Virus record (IMG/VR): IMGVR_UViG_3300034349_000079
Coordinates: 1-64,000 of that record
Length of the DNA: 64,000 nt
Direction: 5' to 3' (one strand)
Origin: a virus
Taxonomy: Duplodnaviria; Caudoviricetes
Part shown: positions 1-31,461 of the stretch, one piece after another
Position numbering within the stretch: the first letter of the stretch is position 1
Layout of the letters: each line of letters begins with the position of its first letter
Position numbers and translations under genes: made by a program
Notes under the pieces: model-generated
What the model saw: the letters and a program-made list of their open reading frames with translations, nothing else
Database searches by the model: none
What the model was told of the DNA's origin: nothing

Positions 1-271
1 CAACGCTTGCAGATTATGACATATTCCCTCTTGCCATAGAAAACAATAACTTTCTGTGTTTTTCTTTGCACATCTGCATAGCAGATGGAGCATACTCCAC
101 TTCTATCAAGCATACGATACTCAGGAACTCTATTTACTTGTGGCATAGCCATTTTTTTCGGTATTGGTAGCGGTATTACTGGCATTTGCGCCGGCTTAAG
201 AGAAGCATACGTGTACTGATCAAGTATTGAAGGAGACATGTATTGACCAAGTCTTTCAATTTTTATCTCCG

Positions 272-871
272 TCATACATTCAAGCTCTGTATCTTTGCTT
301 CATCCCATAATTCCGGACGGAGTCTTTTTAAAACTTCTCCTTGATCATCGCTTGAATAAGCGCGAATGAAAGCGTGTACCCATTCAGCAGCTATTTCTAG
401 ACTCTCCATAGACTGTTTTAACATGTAAATGGCATTTGTGTTTAGTCCGATAGCCTCATATTCAAGAGCATCATATGCTGCTGTACAAGCGTTATTTGCT
501 TCAATCAGTAAAACATGCAGTTGAAATAGCCTAGCATTACATTCATCAACGGCTATGACGCTTTCTAGGTCTTGAAAAGAATTGGCTATGAATTCTACTT
601 GACCAAGCATAAATTGAGCTATTTCTTGTAGGGCTATTTCTTGATTTTTATCAACAGTTTTACCAGCCTTAATGAGTTGATACAGCAGTTGCTGGAGTAA
701 GACTCTTGGTGTAAAATTACCCCAAAGCAAGGGTAGACTGACTGTAGCAGCCTGTACTTGCTGCAAAGAAGTCAGATACGCAATTACAGCGTGACTTTTT
801 CGATATACCTTGTGTCCAACTAAGATTGAGCCTAGGTCTGCTTTCTTCTCTCGCAATTCAGTAATCTTCAT
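272..871 (-). CDS. hypothetical protein
   Basis: 199-aa ORF colinear with the minus-strand gene run; no motif recognised. Confidence 0.75.
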   Translation of the reverse strand: MKITELREKKADLGSILVGHKVYRKSHAVIAYLTSLQQVQAATVSLPLLWGNFTPRVLLQQLLYQLIKAGKTVDKNQEIALQEIAQFMLGQVEFIANSFQDLESVIAVDECNARLFQLHVLLIEANNACTAAYDALEYEAIGLNTNAIYMLKQSMESLEIAAEWVHAFIRAYSSDDQGEVLKRLRPELWDEAKIQSLNV

Positions 872-2487: not shown

Positions 2488-3297
2488 TCAATAGTAATCG
2501 GAGTCTAGGTCCTGCTCGTCATCCTCTTCGTAATTCGGATCCAAGCTGCCACCATAGTTGATTCTGGCCTCATTGAAGTGACCAACCACCTCATCGGTGA
2601 TGTCCGTAAGAACTTCATACCCACGACAACGAAGTTTCGAATCGTTGTAATCCGTAGGAATAGTTCCAACGTCTTCAGGCCCAATAGCAACAGCCACGAT
2701 CCTATCACCATCGTTATAGTATGTACGCAGATAGTCTCTAGAACATGCATGATAGCCACGTGAACATGTGACGTTTGGGTCAGTGTCGACCTTAGACCAG
2801 TCCAACTTTGGAACTACCGTACCCGGAGCGTTCGAGATAGCTTTAGTACGCTTGTCCGAATAATCATTGCAGACAATCTTGAAAGCCAGAAACCGGCCAT
2901 CAGGTAAGATTGGCATCTTTGTAACTTCCATGAAGCGGAACATCCGTGAACGAGTATCATGGCTAGGATTCTCAAACAGCCGTTTGATGAAATTAACGAC
3001 TGGTTCGTAATTACCATCGTCGATAGCAGCACGAAGATAAACCGCCAGATCCATGGCAATCGGAGTACCCAGATAGGTATATCCACCGCCAGAAGTCTCG
3101 ATGCCTTCTTCAACCAGCTTAAGGAATAAATCCTCAGCCCGACCTTTGATGCTCAGCAGTTGTTTCAGTTCTTCCTCATCTTGCTCAAACAGAGCTTCTT
3201 TAACGGCAGCAAACCGTCTGTCAGAACATGAGACAGGGTAAGGAACGCCGTCTAGGACGATGATAACCTCGTCATCTCTTTTAATATAATTGATCAT
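2488..3297 (-). CDS. rIIB: rIIB-like protein
   Basis: LPDGRFLAFK...CSRGYHAC...IPTDYNDSKLRCRGYEV; adjacent to rIIA. Confidence 0.85.
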   Translation of the reverse strand: MINYIKRDDEVIIVLDGVPYPVSCSDRRFAAVKEALFEQDEEELKQLLSIKGRAEDLFLKLVEEGIETSGGGYTYLGTPIAMDLAVYLRAAIDDGNYEPVVNFIKRLFENPSHDTRSRMFRFMEVTKMPILPDGRFLAFKIVCNDYSDKRTKAISNAPGTVVPKLDWSKVDTDPNVTCSRGYHACSRDYLRTYYNDGDRIVAVAIGPEDVGTIPTDYNDSKLRCRGYEVLTDITDEVVGHFNEARINYGGSLDPNYEEDDEQDLDSDYY

Positions 3298-5486
3298 GTT
3301 GTAGATTTTTCTCCGATTAATTGATTGTTAATACGTTCCGCTGCTTTTAAAGCCCTAACAGCTTGGGCATTTTTTGACTTTGCTCCTGTTGGTTTGTTAT
3401 TAGTAAATTCTGCTACCTGTTCAGCCCAGGTAGAAACCGCTGTAAACAGAATATCATTTCCATTATAACCCCAACCACGAGTAGTCGGAAACTTCACGGC
3501 AATATCGTCGATGCGAGCCTTGATCAAAAGATTATTAGGTCCTCTAATTACTGGCGCTTTCTGAATTCCGTACTTATTACAGAGTGCTTCAAAACGAATT
3601 AACCAATCCGCTGGACCGTACGCTTTAACTGTCTGCAAGTTGGATCCGTAGCCAATGACATTATTAACCTGAAGCGAATGAAAAAAGCTTCTGCGTTGTA
3701 CATAGGCAGACTTTAAAAAAGCATCAATCCATACATCAAGTTCAGAAAGTGGCTTGAAGGCTTTCTCGACAGTCTTAGTTCCACGAGATGCCGGAAGCCC
3801 GATGATTACTGGGCGCTTATACTCTGGAATAAGATCTTTAAATTCTAAAAATCTCATAAGTATAGCCGCCCCTACGCCATCGACACACCCAACTCTTGTA
3901 GCGACCCAGTAGACCTCTTTTTTTAGAGCCTTAAGAGATTGGATATTATGCGTAGCTGAATTCCAATCAACTTTGTGCTCACCTGAAGAAAGTCCATTAT
4001 ACACAAGGATATTATGTTTTGGATCTTGTATAGACTTTACAACTACTCTTGTTCGTCTCATTCGCTCGACCGCGGGAGACCTACTTAAAGCCTCTTCATC
4101 TCGCTCTTTTCTAAATGCTGCAACTTCTGCATCAAGATCCCATACTGGGAATTTATTAAGGATATCAAGAATCTGTGGATCTGTACCATACTCTTTGTCG
4201 ATTACTAGTAAAGTAGTTTTTTTAGGGAAATCTGCTGGAAATTCATAATACCTACGCCCACTACCAAGATAATCAGTCAGATCAAACTGAATAAGCTTTG
4301 CAACATAAATAGGTTCTGTTTGTTCGGAATGCCTATGAATAAGATCTAAGTAGTTATTTGATTGGTTTGGAACCTCCGTCTTTTCCCAATAATGCTTGGA
4401 CTCGTGCTGACGAATATATCTAGCACGAACTTTCAGGTTCGCTTTATCTTCGGGGAGAGTACCAAGTAATCGATACCTAAAAGTATCTTGCTCGAAATCA
4501 AGCTCCTCTTCAGCGAATAATTTATTGATGCCACGTTGTAGATCAGCCAAAAAGGTACTAATTGCACGCGGAGTAACGTTTACATACTCTCTACTTGGAT
4601 GTACAGGATATTCTCCAATAGAAGAAAGTATTTCAACGTGGTTGTTCTTGGTGATATTATCGACGATGCTAACCGCATTAACAGTTTTACCACCGATATT
4701 CAATGTGAGACTTTTTGCCTGAATAAAATCCTTGACGGTCTTCAATTCCATTTTATAGGCGACAAATCCCATGATTATGGAAATACCATTTCCGGCGCGC
4801 AAAGTTATAGGACCAAGTACTTGCTCTGCGTGTAGTTCCAAATCTTTGAAGACAATTCCATGTTGATCACCGAGTAGAACATACTTTTCTTTTGGAATCC
4901 TTGGAAGGATATTAAGCGCAGCTTGTCTAAATTGGATATAATCATTCGAACTCGACGTTGTGTATTGGACCTTGATTCCTGTCGATTCCGTAGTATCGAT
5001 ACACGATATGAGATCCACACAAGGTAGATTATCTTCATTGTAATACACAATGTAGATTCTAGCCTTTGTTCCACCATCCTCATTATGATATGAAGTAACA
5101 GTAAAGGACGTTGTGTAAGCTAGTGGACTCTTAGTACCAAGACCAAGGCCACCATGTACTTCATTACTACCACGTCTACTACTATTACCATAGTCGAGGT
5201 ATATCGCCATGAAGTCTTCATGAGACAACCCAGTACCAAAGTCGCGGATTGAAAACTGCTCCTGCCAAATAGTTGGAAGCAGAATCTCAACTGGTCGGTC
5301 TACGCAAGATTCAATGTGCGCATCTAACGCATTGATAAGCACTTCTCGAAACGGACTCTCCACATTTTTTTGGTACAAATCTTTTGATAAGACGTGCAAA
5401 ATGACAGGATTAAGTGAAATACTCGCTACTTTATGGTCTAGAACTTCAGAAGTTTGAACTGCGCTTTTGAGCGCGTTTACTATCAT
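3294..5486 (-). CDS. rIIA: rIIA-like protein (N-terminal GHKL ATPase)
   Basis: REVLINALDAH, IRDFGTGLS, GGLGLGTKS; 730 aa, ATGA-coupled to rIIB. Confidence 0.85.
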   Translation of the reverse strand: MIVNALKSAVQTSEVLDHKVASISLNPVILHVLSKDLYQKNVESPFREVLINALDAHIESCVDRPVEILLPTIWQEQFSIRDFGTGLSHEDFMAIYLDYGNSSRRGSNEVHGGLGLGTKSPLAYTTSFTVTSYHNEDGGTKARIYIVYYNEDNLPCVDLISCIDTTESTGIKVQYTTSSSNDYIQFRQAALNILPRIPKEKYVLLGDQHGIVFKDLELHAEQVLGPITLRAGNGISIIMGFVAYKMELKTVKDFIQAKSLTLNIGGKTVNAVSIVDNITKNNHVEILSSIGEYPVHPSREYVNVTPRAISTFLADLQRGINKLFAEEELDFEQDTFRYRLLGTLPEDKANLKVRARYIRQHESKHYWEKTEVPNQSNNYLDLIHRHSEQTEPIYVAKLIQFDLTDYLGSGRRYYEFPADFPKKTTLLVIDKEYGTDPQILDILNKFPVWDLDAEVAAFRKERDEEALSRSPAVERMRRTRVVVKSIQDPKHNILVYNGLSSGEHKVDWNSATHNIQSLKALKKEVYWVATRVGCVDGVGAAILMRFLEFKDLIPEYKRPVIIGLPASRGTKTVEKAFKPLSELDVWIDAFLKSAYVQRRSFFHSLQVNNVIGYGSNLQTVKAYGPADWLIRFEALCNKYGIQKAPVIRGPNNLLIKARIDDIAVKFPTTRGWGYNGNDILFTAVSTWAEQVAEFTNNKPTGAKSKNAQAVRALKAAERINNQLIGEKSTT

Positions 5487-6401: not shown

Positions 6402-6782
6402 TCATATTGCTGTAGCCTTCTCAAAAGAGCGTCTTAGATCTTCATCTTCCTCACTTTCCTCTCTATCTAAATCTCCTAGAAGATAGCCACCAGGTGGTTC
6501 CCACTGCTCACCTTGTTTAAACTGCTCAAACAGTTCTGCTACCTCTTCAGTTTCTTGAATCGGGAGCACTTGTGGCGAAGAAGAACTTTCTCTTTGATAT
6601 TTTTGCCAGGCGAGGAGTACCTTTTTGTATTGAGTCTTTAATTTCGGTGTTTGAGTATAACCGTCGATAAAGATGTCAATTTCTTCGGTATCAACTTTGC
6701 TAAGCTCATGCAGTAGCATTTCGCGCTCAGTTGAGAAACTGGTACCATCGTCGGCAACCCAAACTATTGTAGATTTACCCAT
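6402..6782 (-). CDS. hypothetical protein
   Basis: 126-aa ORF with acidic C-terminus. Confidence 0.7.
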   Translation of the reverse strand: MGKSTIVWVADDGTSFSTEREMLLHELSKVDTEEIDIFIDGYTQTPKLKTQYKKVLLAWQKYQRESSSSPQVLPIQETEEVAELFEQFKQGEQWEPPGGYLLGDLDREESEEDEDLRRSFEKATAI

Positions 6783-9294: not shown

Positions 9295-9369
9295 AGTATT
9301 CTCCTCAACTGGCGACTAGCTGATATATTTGGTCTTTACTTTCCTAGATAGACGATTCGTGATGTATAG

Positions 9370-9518
9370 AGGAACTAGATAGGACTCGAACCTATTTGAT
9401 CGGGGCATATTGAATTATCCAATAGTACACATGTGCACTGTGTAGTATCCTTTCTTTCGTTACCTGTTCCGAGACGGTCAGTAATCCGTTCTGCCTACCC
9501 ATAGCCGTTACAAGTTCC
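9370..9518 (-). ncRNA. oversized tRNA-like RNA A (8-bp acceptor, T-arm, ~115-nt interior)
   Basis: GGAACTTG/CTAGTTCC stem, ATAGG-TTCGAGT-CCTAT T-arm. Confidence 0.55.
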
Positions 9519-9533
9519 TCTATGCACCATAAA

Positions 9534-9623
9534 GGGAAGGTCAACCTAGGAATCGAACCTAGTATAACAGAGATCGTTATGCACTTGATCTCCACTGCTA
9601 TCCTGTTTGCCCGGGCCCCTTCC
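9534..9623 (-). ncRNA. tRNA-like RNA B with a long hairpin in place of the anticodon arm
   Basis: GGAAGG/CCTTCC stem, CTAGG-TTCGATT-CCTAG T-arm, ATAGCA..GAGATC/GATCTC..TGTTAT hairpin. Confidence 0.5.
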
Positions 9624-9712
9624 GCACCCTGTCTCTTTCCATAAGATGACCCAAATACAAATGCTATTACCTGGCCAGATAATTCGCTTTGTACCAAGAT
9701 GTTGACCATAAT

Positions 9713-9778
9713 TGGTGGACAATAGCGGTGTCGAACCGCTTATTCCTACGTGATAGGAAGTATTCCCGATAATTGCCC
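9713..9778 (-). ncRNA. D-stemless tRNA-like RNA C (G3:U70, A73, CCA)
   Basis: GGGCAAT/ATTGTCC-A-CCA, 12-nt TATCGGGAATAC loop, TTCCTAT/GTAGGAA hairpin, AGCGG/CCGCT T-arm. Confidence 0.7.
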
Positions 9779-9788
9779 ATAGTTTGAT

Positions 9789-9869
9789 TGGTTGACACTG
9801 GTGGATTCGAACCACCACCTCCCCCGCGTTAAGCTTAAACGCGTGGGAAAGACTTCCCAAAGAGTGCCA
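9789..9869 (-). ncRNA. D-stemless tRNA-like RNA D (G3:U70, A73, CCA)
   Basis: TGGCACT/AGTGTCA-A-CCA, 12-nt CTTTGGGAAGTC loop, 12-bp hairpin, GGTGG/CCACC T-arm. Confidence 0.7.
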
Positions 9870-9876
9870 GTATTGA

Positions 9877-10081
9877 TCTCCAGTACGGGAGTCGAACCCG
9901 TTATAGACTATACTGCGTGCATTACTTCGCAGCGAACACTGAGATTAAAACGCGCATCATCGAAACTAACTCGTCTCTGGGCTAGCCACTGCACCTGCAA
10001 AATCCCTCAGTTTCCTAAAGTCATCGCTTTTTCGCTTCACCTCTTCGTTTTTAGGCGGCGGTACCATTTGCCTTACTGGAG
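9877..10081 (-). ncRNA. 205-nt tRNA-framed RNA E
   Basis: perfect CTCCAGT/ACTGGAG acceptor, GGC/GCC D-arm, ACGGG-TTCGACT-CCCGT T-arm, ~150-nt multi-hairpin interior. Confidence 0.6.
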
Positions 10082-10086
10082 TTAAT

Positions 10087-10160
10087 TGGCGGGTCAGCAG
10101 GGAATCGAACCCCAGTCAGTAGTTTTGGAGACTACTACTTTGCCACTAAGCTACAAACCC
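10087..10160 (-). tRNA. trnW: tRNA-Trp(CCA)
   Basis: cloverleaf, GTAGT-CTCCAAA-ACTAC anticodon arm, encoded CCA. Confidence 0.9.
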
Positions 10161-10422
10161 TGAAAGCTTCTTCATTATCACGACATTTAATAACGTCATC
10201 CCAGTCGACCCATTTTCCGCTATCTCGATCAAAGATATCATAACAACCTACTTTTTCAAGGTTTACTTCTCTGTTATCTGCTTCTTTATCTTCCTTAGCA
10301 AGAGCTTCGATATCCTCCCATTTGACCCAGTCTCCTATTGTGTCTTGAATGGATTCCCAATGGCATCCATATTCTAAACCGTAGGCGGCAATATCGTATC
10401 TGTCAAGTTGTTCAATTTGCAT
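10135..10422 (-). CDS. hypothetical protein, paralog of 10374..10694
   Basis: shared RYDI..Y...W...GD.VKW.DI and DIFDR....W.DWDD modules. Confidence 0.65.
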   Translation of the reverse strand: MQIEQLDRYDIAAYGLEYGCHWESIQDTIGDWVKWEDIEALAKEDKEADNREVNLEKVGCYDIFDRDSGKWVDWDDVIKCRDNEEAFRVCSLVAK

Positions 10423-30473: not shown

Positions 30474-30525
30474 CGGTGGACATCAACGGGGTTGAACCGT
30501 TCACTACCGTCGTAGCTTAATGTCC
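30474..30525 (-). ncRNA. 52-nt tRNA minihelix-like RNA
   Basis: GGACATT/GATGTCC-A-CCG, AACGG-TTCAACC-CCGTT T-arm, one 4-bp hairpin between them. Confidence 0.55.
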
Positions 30526-30534
30526 GTAATTAGT

Positions 30535-30656
30535 TGGGACTGAGAGGTTTCGAACCTCTGACATGCTGTTGTGATAATACACCAAATCCGGACTATTTGT
30601 CAAGTTTGGATGGCGCATGTTTTTGACGGCTGCTCTACCAGCTGAGCTACAGTCCC
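30535..30656 (-). ncRNA. tRNA-like RNA with a 47-nt Y-module insertion in the anticodon stem
   Basis: GGGACTG/CAGTCCC, GCTC/GAGC D-arm, AGAGG/CCTCT T-arm; insert contains CTTGAC/GTCCGG helix. Confidence 0.7.
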
Positions 30657-31385: not shown

Positions 31386-31461
31386 TGGAGCGGACACGGA
31401 AAGAATCAAACTCCGGTCATTAGCTTGGAAGGCTAAGGTAATATCACTATACGATATCCGC
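31386..31461 (-). tRNA. trnG: tRNA-Gly(TCC)
   Basis: TTAGC-CTTCCAA-GCTAA, U73, CCA; bulged T-stem. Confidence 0.85.

Follow-up and report, generated by a model that had tools for sequence, protein, structure and literature searches.

A tandem pair of alanine-type RNAs without a standard anticodon arm in a phage tRNA-gene array: candidate tRNA mimics with no tmRNA match

Why would a phage encode two adjacent RNAs that appear to keep the alanine-accepting end and the elbow of a tRNA and to dispense with a standard anticodon arm? This question is raised by positions 9713-9869 of a 64-kb stretch of DNA (64,000 nt, hereafter the window), which is the first part of the 83.6-kb IMG/VR virus record IMGVR_UViG_3300034349_000079 (46% G+C; completeness estimate 64%). 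An earlier note on this DNA described two adjacent RNAs of 66 and 81 nt with one shared design and compared them with the tRNA-like domain (TLD) of transfer-messenger RNA (tmRNA). The design is borne out on the minus strand (RNA A, 9778-9713; RNA B, 9869-9789), and its parts, namely a 7-bp acceptor with G3.U70, A73 and encoded CCA, a 12-nt D region with GGGAA, one hairpin, a 2-nt linker and a canonical T-arm, are all present in both RNAs. The explanation that we tentatively favour, and to which we give slightly less than an even chance, is that A and B are paralogous tRNA mimics, tRNA-derived, alanine-chargeable and non-decoding, which lie in a phage tRNA-gene island and do not come from tmRNA. 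The structure can be read directly, as follows.

9713-9778, minus strand: RNA A, whole gene including the encoded CCA, 66 nt; candidate anticodon-less alanine-type tRNA mimic
9772-9778, minus strand: acceptor 5′ strand of A, GGGCAAU, pairing with AUUGUCC at 9717-9723; 7/7 pairs, with G3.U70 as the sole wobble
9760-9771, minus strand: D region of A, UAUCGGGAAUAC, 12 nt, predicted to be unpaired (per-base unpaired probability 0.61-0.99)
9743-9759, minus strand: hairpin of A, 6-bp stem UUCCUA/UAGGAA and loop UCACG
9741-9742, minus strand: linker of A, UA, 2 nt
9724-9740, minus strand: T-arm of A, AGCGG-UUCGACA-CCGCU
9713-9716, minus strand: discriminator A73 and encoded CCA of A
9789-9869, minus strand: RNA B, whole gene including the encoded CCA, 81 nt; candidate paralogous mimic with a longer hairpin
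9863-9869, minus strand: acceptor 5′ strand of B, UGGCACU, pairing with AGUGUCA at 9793-9799; 7/7 pairs, with G3.U70 as the sole wobble and U1-A72 as pair 1:72
9851-9862, minus strand: D region of B, CUUUGGGAAGUC, 12 nt
9819-9850, minus strand: long hairpin of B, with an outer 6 bp (UUUCCC/GGGGAG), a bulged A, an inner 6 bp (CGCGUU/AACGCG) and the 7-nt loop UAAGCUU
9817-9818, minus strand: linker of B, GU, 2 nt
9800-9816, minus strand: T-arm of B, GGUGG-UUCGAAU-CCACC
9789-9792, minus strand: discriminator A73 and encoded CCA of B

When the closing A-U pair of the A hairpin is opened, a 7-nt loop (AUCACGU) with U33 and G37 results. The hairpin loop of B has A33 and U37, and the palindrome AAGCUU inside it could permit loop-loop dimers.

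Evidence that this design has been maintained comes from an alignment of A with B in which the hairpin apex was trimmed. All of the base pairs (18/18) form in both RNAs, and the covariation between the two copies is directly observable: they differ by six double compensatory changes, two in each of the three helices. When the 3′ partners are slid by 1-3 columns, pairing falls to 39-58% and the signal is lost. Acceptor pairs 2-5, including G3.U70, are identical in A and B. A single transition suffices to turn G.U into a Watson-Crick pair, and a wobble that is neutral is the pair most easily lost. Because G3.U70 was kept while neighbouring pairs were replaced, the comparison argues that the wobble itself has been selected, provided that A and B are true paralogues. 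Paralogy is likely because the two RNAs share GGCA at positions 2-5, GGGAA at 12-16, C19, a hairpin starting with UU and the 2-nt linker. Their hairpin apices differ, with a 5-nt loop in A and, in B, a 7-nt loop on six additional pairs above a bulged A. Since the core design is shared and the apex varies, the function would therefore lie in the acceptor/T-arm/elbow core and not in an anticodon.

The predicted folds reproduce this design. ViennaRNA minimum-energy structures were compared with dinucleotide shuffles (n = 200), and the z-score was -3.2 for both RNAs: the fold of A has an energy of -20.6 kcal/mol (0/200 shuffles as stable) and that of B -32.8 kcal/mol (1/200 shuffles as stable). 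The minimum-energy fold of B has an extra C19-G52 pair, which reduces the linker to 1 nt. The D-loop had been described as stemless, and the predicted ensemble does leave the region unpaired; in A as in B, however, GGGAA has an alternative partner in the 5′ strand of the hairpin, UUCC(C). This alternative is GGGAA/UUCCU in A (-16.4 kcal/mol, compared with -18.0 for the design) and a 5-bp GGGAA/UUCCC helix in B (-29.3 compared with -30.5 kcal/mol), where it yields a cloverleaf-like structure with a 6-bp 'anticodon' stem. It thus lies 1.2-1.6 kcal/mol above the design of the same depth and approximately 3.5 kcal/mol above the minimum-energy fold of B, and it makes up at most 2% of the predicted ensemble of either RNA. 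The stemless D region is therefore the favoured state among the predicted ones. A 7-nt piece of the D region repeats the hairpin 3′ strand plus linker at 6/7 positions in both RNAs (GGGAAUA/AGGAAUA in A, 9760-9766 with 9741-9747; GGGAAGU/GGGAGGU in B, 9852-9858 with 9817-9823), and the competing D-hairpin fold follows from this repeat. The swap of partners by GGGAA, which the models allow in both RNAs, might serve as a two-state switch.

Alanyl-tRNA synthetase (AlaRS) reads the acceptor G3.U70 with G2-C71 and A73, and it charges even minihelices. The bacterial alanine identity set consists of A73, G2-C71, G3.U70, G4-C69 and G20 (PMC9976931). In both A and B, the identity marks A73, G2-C71 and G3.U70 are directly seen, and these are three of the four acceptor-stem elements of the set; G20 is not assignable in RNAs without a D arm. 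By contrast with these alanine marks, tRNA status is not reached. B reaches 16.4 bits with Rfam tRNA (RF00005), whose threshold is 29, A has no match with it, default ARAGORN makes no call for either RNA, and relaxed ARAGORN (80% score threshold) calls A 'Val CAC' and B 'Ala AGC'. Judged by the tRNA cloverleaf, that is, a D arm, a 7-nt loop, U33, purine 37 and an above-threshold score, both RNAs fail, and neither has a standard anticodon arm.

The layout of A and B parallels that of the tmRNA TLD, as the earlier note had proposed, and TLD-only RNAs of phages are already on record. Mycobacteriophage DS6A is reported to have an ssrA that is 'little more than the TLD', and a similar TLD-only molecule to inhibit tmRNA strongly in E. 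coli, perhaps via SmpB titration (PMC4131195; PMC11915505; both with reference to Mao et al. 2009). We located the DS6A element at JN698994:28478-28560; it is the only published natural precedent that was found. A second natural example, of 82 nt, occurs at L269:10338-10419 (plus strand) in the viral contig IMGVR_UViG_3300021958_001001, with 18 nt between it and the end of the contig. This RNA aligns to the complete Rfam tmRNA model, its entire interior being deleted, and it is preceded by a hairpin and followed by a run of T. The same contig has a Pistol ribozyme match at L269:5883-5946 (plus strand; 59.4 bits, threshold 34.5).

With these two TLD-only RNAs as positive controls, the sequence-level resemblance did not hold. 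The whole RF00023 (tmRNA) model scores 70 bits for the L269 RNA and 43.2 bits for that of DS6A and gives no match at A and B even at E<=10, so that the full tmRNA match in Rfam, which the earlier note had named as counter-evidence to its own proposal, was looked for and was not found. RF02544 (mt-tmRNA) gave no match at A and B either, on a model for which the controls were not run. A covariance model built from the two natural TLD-only RNAs (R2) scores B at 18.2 and A at 13.2 bits, and the ordinary tRNAs of the window at 12-23 bits. The converse model (R1) was built from A and apex-trimmed B, its own sequences scoring 87.5 (A) and 76.5 bits (B). It gives 17.4 and 8.9 bits for the natural TLD-only RNAs and 23-39 bits for tRNA-type genes; because tRNA-type genes score above TLD-only RNAs, A and B are tRNA-like rather than tmRNA-like. 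The details agree with the scores. The D region of the controls is 13-14 nt long and ends in U(C/U)GAC (UCGAC/UUGAC), whereas that of A and B is 12 nt long and ends in AAUAC/AAGUC; the linker is 4 nt in the controls (GGAC/GCAC) and 2 nt in A and B; and the acceptor starts with GGGG in the controls, with GGGC in A and with UGGC in B, pair 4:69 being G-C in both controls and C-G in A and B. An mRNA-like domain with a tag reading frame is absent from A and B, in which a hairpin alone stands between the D region and the T-arm, as in tmRNAs without a coding sequence. The lack of tmRNA homology is thus a direct result, and it is the architecture alone that A and B would share with the TLD: they fail tmRNA membership, and if they act in a TLD-like manner, this action would be a convergence from tRNA-like sequence.

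The array context is likewise directly visible. Nearly all genes of the window are carried by the minus strand, on which A and B stand in the following order.

10160-10087, minus strand: tRNA-Trp
10081-9874, minus strand: 208-nt acceptor/T-arm RNA
9869-9789, minus strand: RNA B
9778-9713, minus strand: RNA A
9707-9535, minus strand: 173-nt acceptor/T-arm RNA

The array genes are co-oriented with the tRNA-Trp, with spacers of 4-10 nt and no terminator inside the array; a scan for promoters and terminators yielded nothing beyond shuffle expectation, apart from one weak promoter-like site upstream of the tRNA-Trp. The 173-nt and 208-nt RNAs that flank the pair are both enclosed by a perfect acceptor stem of 7 bp and a canonical T-arm; G3.U70 and an encoded CCA are absent from both. 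Altogether, the array that contains A and B holds three further odd acceptor/T-arm RNAs. A descriptor scan of the whole 83.6-kb genome returned 24 acceptor/T-arm candidates, among which A and B alone combine a T loop and co-orientation with G.U at 3:70. In a blastn comparison with isolated phages, only the tRNA-Trp of the array was matched, and the open reading frames overlapping A or B on both strands had no Pfam match.

Genes recognised in this phage include those for rIIA/rIIB-like proteins, a family A DNA polymerase, a primase-like protein, an Rnl-type RNA ligase, phosphoesterases and, at approximately 17 kb from A and B, a Ro60 homologue (TROVE and vWA domains). SmpB is not encoded by the phage. 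ARAGORN reports 13 standard tRNAs, of which none is tRNA-Ala, and a canonical tRNA-Ala is absent from the 83.6 kb. The phage lineage is poorly sampled, since the primase of the closest isolated phages is only about 30% identical. Further tRNA-like elements lie on the minus strand elsewhere in the window. A 52-nt miniature element at 30474-30525 combines an acceptor of 7-8 bp (A3-U70) with a 5-bp hairpin and a T-arm containing UUCAACC; its 3′ end is ACCG (fold z = -2.7), and it is the third-best match of model R1 (21.7 bits). Two elements without a default ARAGORN call match the Rfam tRNA model, one at 30535-30656, a tRNA carrying a large insertion (46.9 bits, 122 nt spanned), and the other at 31395-31461 (32.9 bits).

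Relatives of A and B were sought by sequence models, by patterns and by gene order. The covariance-model search of phage genomes that the earlier note had suggested as a check yielded no A/B relative in the set searched: over 100 viral loci and 50 whole viral records (approximately 8.6 Mb of combined bases in the 50), the best R1 score was 39.7 bits, and every match was of tRNA type. Three pattern scans of viral contigs, one of metagenome contigs and two of genome contigs were also run. In viral contigs, the A/B core pattern returned false matches and tRNAs only, and the G3.U70-type 3′ end pattern mostly tRNA-Ala(UGC). In metagenome contigs, the A/B pattern gave 117 matches, none of them with G3.U70, and 35 of the 117 belong to a 78-nt tRNA-Leu-like family. 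The strict pattern had 0 matches in genome contigs, and the D-loop/hairpin-start pattern found no A/B homologue in viral and genome contigs. A related-locus search of viral contigs led from GP88 to one distant locus, without tRNAs, and from the 164-aa neighbour, the primase and Ro60 to nothing. Two contigs with an identical GP88 protein are 100% identical to the window and thus offer no variation. Homologues of the GP88-like neighbour led to contigs with the same gene order at 50-62% protein identity, and A/B-like RNAs occur in none of these. In the lineage L028-L031, the site upstream of the GP88-like gene, which is the A/B site, holds six ordinary tRNAs according to ARAGORN (Pro, Asp, Asn, Glu, Tyr, Leu) and seven according to Rfam. 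Because a syntenic lineage has ordinary tRNAs at exactly this site, the A/B site is a tRNA island with turnover of its content. On these searches, A and B are to be regarded as orphans at present. A literature search for the stable 'species 1' RNA of phage T4 gave nothing.

Other RNAs with G3.U70, A73 and CCA do occur in unrelated viral contigs. The closest A/B look-alike found is an identical 75-nt RNA in the tRNA clusters of two viral contigs (L173:8402-8476, minus strand; L197:1381-1455, plus strand), which scores 32.4 bits with R1 and is not a tRNA by ARAGORN or Rfam. It has G3.U70, A73, CCA, a long D region with GGGAA, a 6-bp hairpin with the 6-nt loop AACCAA, a 4-nt linker and a T-arm. 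Two tRNA-like genes with G3.U70 and without a D arm were seen at L194:4987-5047 (minus strand, 61 nt) and L247:2797-2855 (minus strand, 59 nt), and the L194 element has the canonical anticodon loop CUGUCAC (GUC) and G73. Four viral contigs have in common a 65-nt tRNA-Ala(UGC)-like gene, also without a D arm (L292:~6599-6663, plus strand; L294:~3250-3314, minus strand; L295:~693-757, plus strand; L296:~146-210, plus strand). This gene has an intact GAAUC-CUUGCAA-GAUUC anticodon arm, G3.U70, A73 and CCA, its position 2 is C, U or A and never paired with C71, and it receives no ARAGORN call. A 72-nt G3.U70/A73/CCA element with a GC-rich interior and no ARAGORN tRNA call is present in an Alphaproteobacteria metagenome-assembled genome (L311:~3386-3457, plus strand). 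The tRNA-Leu-like family, of 78-79 nt, comprises L012:4607-4684 (minus strand) and 35 metagenome loci, such as L093:854-932 (plus strand), L046, L117 and L130. Its members follow GGGCArN-UGAyGGGAAyUG-GyAUACC..., with G3-C70, A73 and an encoded CCA; ARAGORN reads them as tRNA-Leu, with the Leu anticodons CAA, UAA, UAG and CAG, and they have a short variable region and a weak D stem. Descent of A from this family was considered and dropped, the likeness beyond the pattern-forced positions being G1, U8 and one variable acceptor pair.

RNase P and 3′ trimming act on acceptor/T-arm helices, and EF-Tu binds the aminoacyl acceptor/T-arm helix. Under the explanation that we favour, A and B would be transcribed together with the neighbouring tRNA-Trp and the other tRNA-like genes and would be excised in the manner of tRNAs, by RNase P at the 5′ end and by trimming back to the encoded CCA at the 3′ end. 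Each RNA would then fold into an acceptor/T-arm helix and an elbow, formed by the GG of the D region with the T loop, and would present a plain hairpin at the position of the anticodon arm. Loading with alanine by the host AlaRS is expected because G3.U70, G2-C71 and A73 are present, and EF-Tu would bind subsequently. Decoding should be impossible without a working anticodon, and the RNAs would be alanine-accepting mimics, or would compete for the machinery by which the acceptor end and the elbow of tRNA-Ala or tmRNA are recognised. We infer the processing, the charging, the EF-Tu binding and the target. SmpB/trans-translation is the sole target for which there is an experimental precedent (PMC4131195; PMC11915505); SmpB titration is a candidate role of A and B, albeit one that we consider rather unlikely. 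Ro60/RNA turnover, acceptor-end toxins and alanyl-tRNA-dependent transferases are optional targets, and a role as stability or processing handles is another option.

Several points weigh against this explanation. The earlier note took G3.U70 as AlaRS identity; G3.U70, G2-C71 and A73 agree with that claim in both RNAs, but pair 4:69 is C-G, compared with the G4-C69 of the bacterial alanine set. In addition, B starts with U1-A72, and for both reasons the efficiency of charging is uncertain. Charging by the host AlaRS is a prediction from the bacterial identity set and is itself uncertain. The D-hairpin competes within 1.2-3.5 kcal/mol, and hence the true fold may differ. The evidence of constraint comes from a comparison of two paralogues in one genome only, an orthologue was found neither in the viral, metagenome or genome contig collections nor in the syntenic relatives, and the locus is thus an orphan for which everything beyond structure is inference.

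The reading of the earlier note makes A and B functional TLD equivalents, which would bind SmpB and either titrate it, thereby turning host trans-translation off, or add tag-less alanine on stalled ribosomes. Their layout equals that of the DS6A RNA, the L269 RNA (70 bits to RF00023) is a second natural TLD-only RNA in a viral contig, the GG position and terminal C of their D regions resemble the tmRNA D loop, and a TLD-only molecule inhibits tmRNA in E. coli (PMC4131195 and PMC11915505, on the authority of Mao et al. 2009). However, RF00023 and RF02544 are silent at A and B, although of the positive controls one passes and the other nearly does (70 and 43.2 bits), and R2 places A and B at the level of ordinary tRNAs. 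Moreover, the 12-nt D region (13-14 nt in TLD-only RNAs) has no U(C/U)GAC ending, the linker has 2 rather than 4 nt, pair 4:69 is C-G rather than G-C, and the phage lacks an SmpB gene. We therefore hold it to be unlikely that A and B are TLD equivalents. As a convergent, tRNA-derived version, they would be charged by AlaRS and would capture SmpB or enter stalled ribosomes with it, by which the phage would shut down or redirect host ribosome rescue; we give this version an equally small chance. If it were true, together with the switch, A and B would be one case of widespread, largely undescribed anticodon-less alanine-accepting RNAs in phage tRNA arrays. It is somewhat more doubtful still that A and B are tRNA-gene remnants without a trans function of their own, either decaying copies or RNase P/CCA processing and stability handles of the array transcript. 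Remnants would suit a site that in relatives is a tRNA island, an array with three further odd acceptor/T-arm RNAs, and the failure to find, in the collections searched, any orthologue that might show conservation. Nevertheless, all helices are perfect, the T loops are canonical and the CCA is encoded; the paralogues differ by six compensatory double changes and both keep G3.U70; the interiors are perfect hairpins, which are not expected of random deletion products; and since the neighbours own acceptor/T-arm handles, extra punctuation would be superfluous.

Decoding by unusual tRNAs is improbable in our view. A would be a D-arm-less tRNA with the anticodon CAC, and B a tRNA-Ala(AGC) whose short D-arm is in the selenocysteine style and whose anticodon stem has 6 bp. 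Relaxed ARAGORN calls both, the A loop with its A-U pair opened (A32-U33-CAC-G37-U38) is canonical in form, the centre of the B loop, AGC, is an alanine anticodon in an RNA with alanine identity, the cloverleaf alternative of B is only 1.2 kcal/mol above the matched design, and D-arm-less tRNA-like genes with intact anticodon loops exist in viral contigs (L194, L292-L296). Yet the B loop carries A33 and U37 in place of U33, which is near-universal, and purine 37, and it caps a 13-bp helix in the favoured fold, the A loop is predicted to close to 5 or even 3 nt, and A would put Ala at Val codons. The scores are far below tRNA thresholds, and the paralogues share the core and not the arm length, which is unexpected for decoders. 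A similarly low probability is assigned to a service in the Ro60/Y-RNA system or in another tRNA-directed conflict, where A and B would be ligands or competitors for Ro60, exoribonucleases or RNA repair, or decoys for acceptor-end toxins. The phage does encode Ro60 (TROVE and vWA), an Rnl-type RNA ligase and phosphoesterases, and the tRNA-like module of Deinococcus radiodurans Yrn1 is close to the A/B core: it keeps features of a D loop but no complete D arm, its 'anticodon' arm of 5 bp carries a 6-nt loop, and a variable arm is missing (PMC4201824). Against this, the Ro60 gene is about 17 kb away, and a Ro-binding helix is not recognisable in A and B, whose ends form an acceptor stem with CCA. 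Rfam gathering thresholds yield tRNA as the sole family of the window, a search of 9300-10300 at E<=10 adds none of note, and the alanine identity marks would be left unexplained.

The usual explanations of phage tRNA genes are help with codon usage or the replacement of tRNAs cut by host defence systems. A phage RNA that keeps only the alanine-accepting end and the elbow fits neither role. A and B instead point to mimicry of tRNA-Ala or tmRNA as an infection tactic, with AlaRS, EF-Tu, SmpB/ribosome rescue and acceptor-end enzymes as possible targets. Both a phage TLD-only RNA and the inhibition of tmRNA by such a molecule are already known from the literature (PMC4131195; PMC11915505). What appears to be new here, as far as the sequences tell, is that A and B are tRNA-like and not tmRNA-derived, that they form a diverged tandem pair, and that they belong to a Ro60-encoding phage with an RNA ligase and other odd tRNA-like RNAs. 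They suggest that a DS6A-like design can arise from tRNA-like sequence without tmRNA ancestry.

The place of A and B among known systems can be stated by comparison. With tRNA-Ala and synthetic G3.U70 minihelices, they share a 7-bp acceptor that bears G3.U70, G2-C71 and A73 and stacks on a 5-bp T-arm; they differ from tRNA-Ala in the predicted absence of a D-stem, in the absence of a UGC/GGC anticodon loop, in the C-G rather than G-C pair at 4:69, in the U1-A72 pair of B, and in scores far below tRNA model thresholds. Mitochondrial tRNAs that lack a D arm, such as metazoan tRNA-Ser(AGY), have, like the predicted folds of A and B, an unpaired loop in place of the D arm, a short variable region and a length of about 60-66 nt. 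However, they possess a functional 7-nt anticodon loop and dedicated mitochondrial factors, and such a loop is clearly missing from B and doubtful in A. Bacterial Y RNAs (YrlA, D. radiodurans Yrn1; PMC4201824) resemble A and B in combining a T-arm with a D-loop mimic and a short non-anticodon hairpin and in having Ro60 encoded alongside, but their ends form a Ro-binding helix and most are neither CCA-tailed nor chargeable, whereas the ends of A and B form an alanine-type acceptor with an encoded CCA.

The TLD-only RNAs of DS6A and L269 are, like A and B, phage-encoded RNAs of about 80 nt with a 7-bp G3.U70 acceptor, A73, an unpaired D region containing GG (by prediction in A and B) and a canonical T-arm, in which one closed helix replaces the tmRNA body, the linker is short and there is no tag reading frame. 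Unlike A and B, they are recognisable relatives of tmRNA, with a different D region, linker and acceptor start, and DS6A does not encode the CCA, whereas A and B encode it and form a tandem pair inside a tRNA-like array. Compared with full-length tmRNA (RF00023), A and B lack the mRNA-like domain, the pseudoknots and the conserved sequence signature of the TLD, and the covariance model is silent; nevertheless, they share with its TLD the alanine acceptor identity, the T-arm, the (in A and B predicted) absence of a D stem and a helix that leaves the elbow at the position of the anticodon arm.

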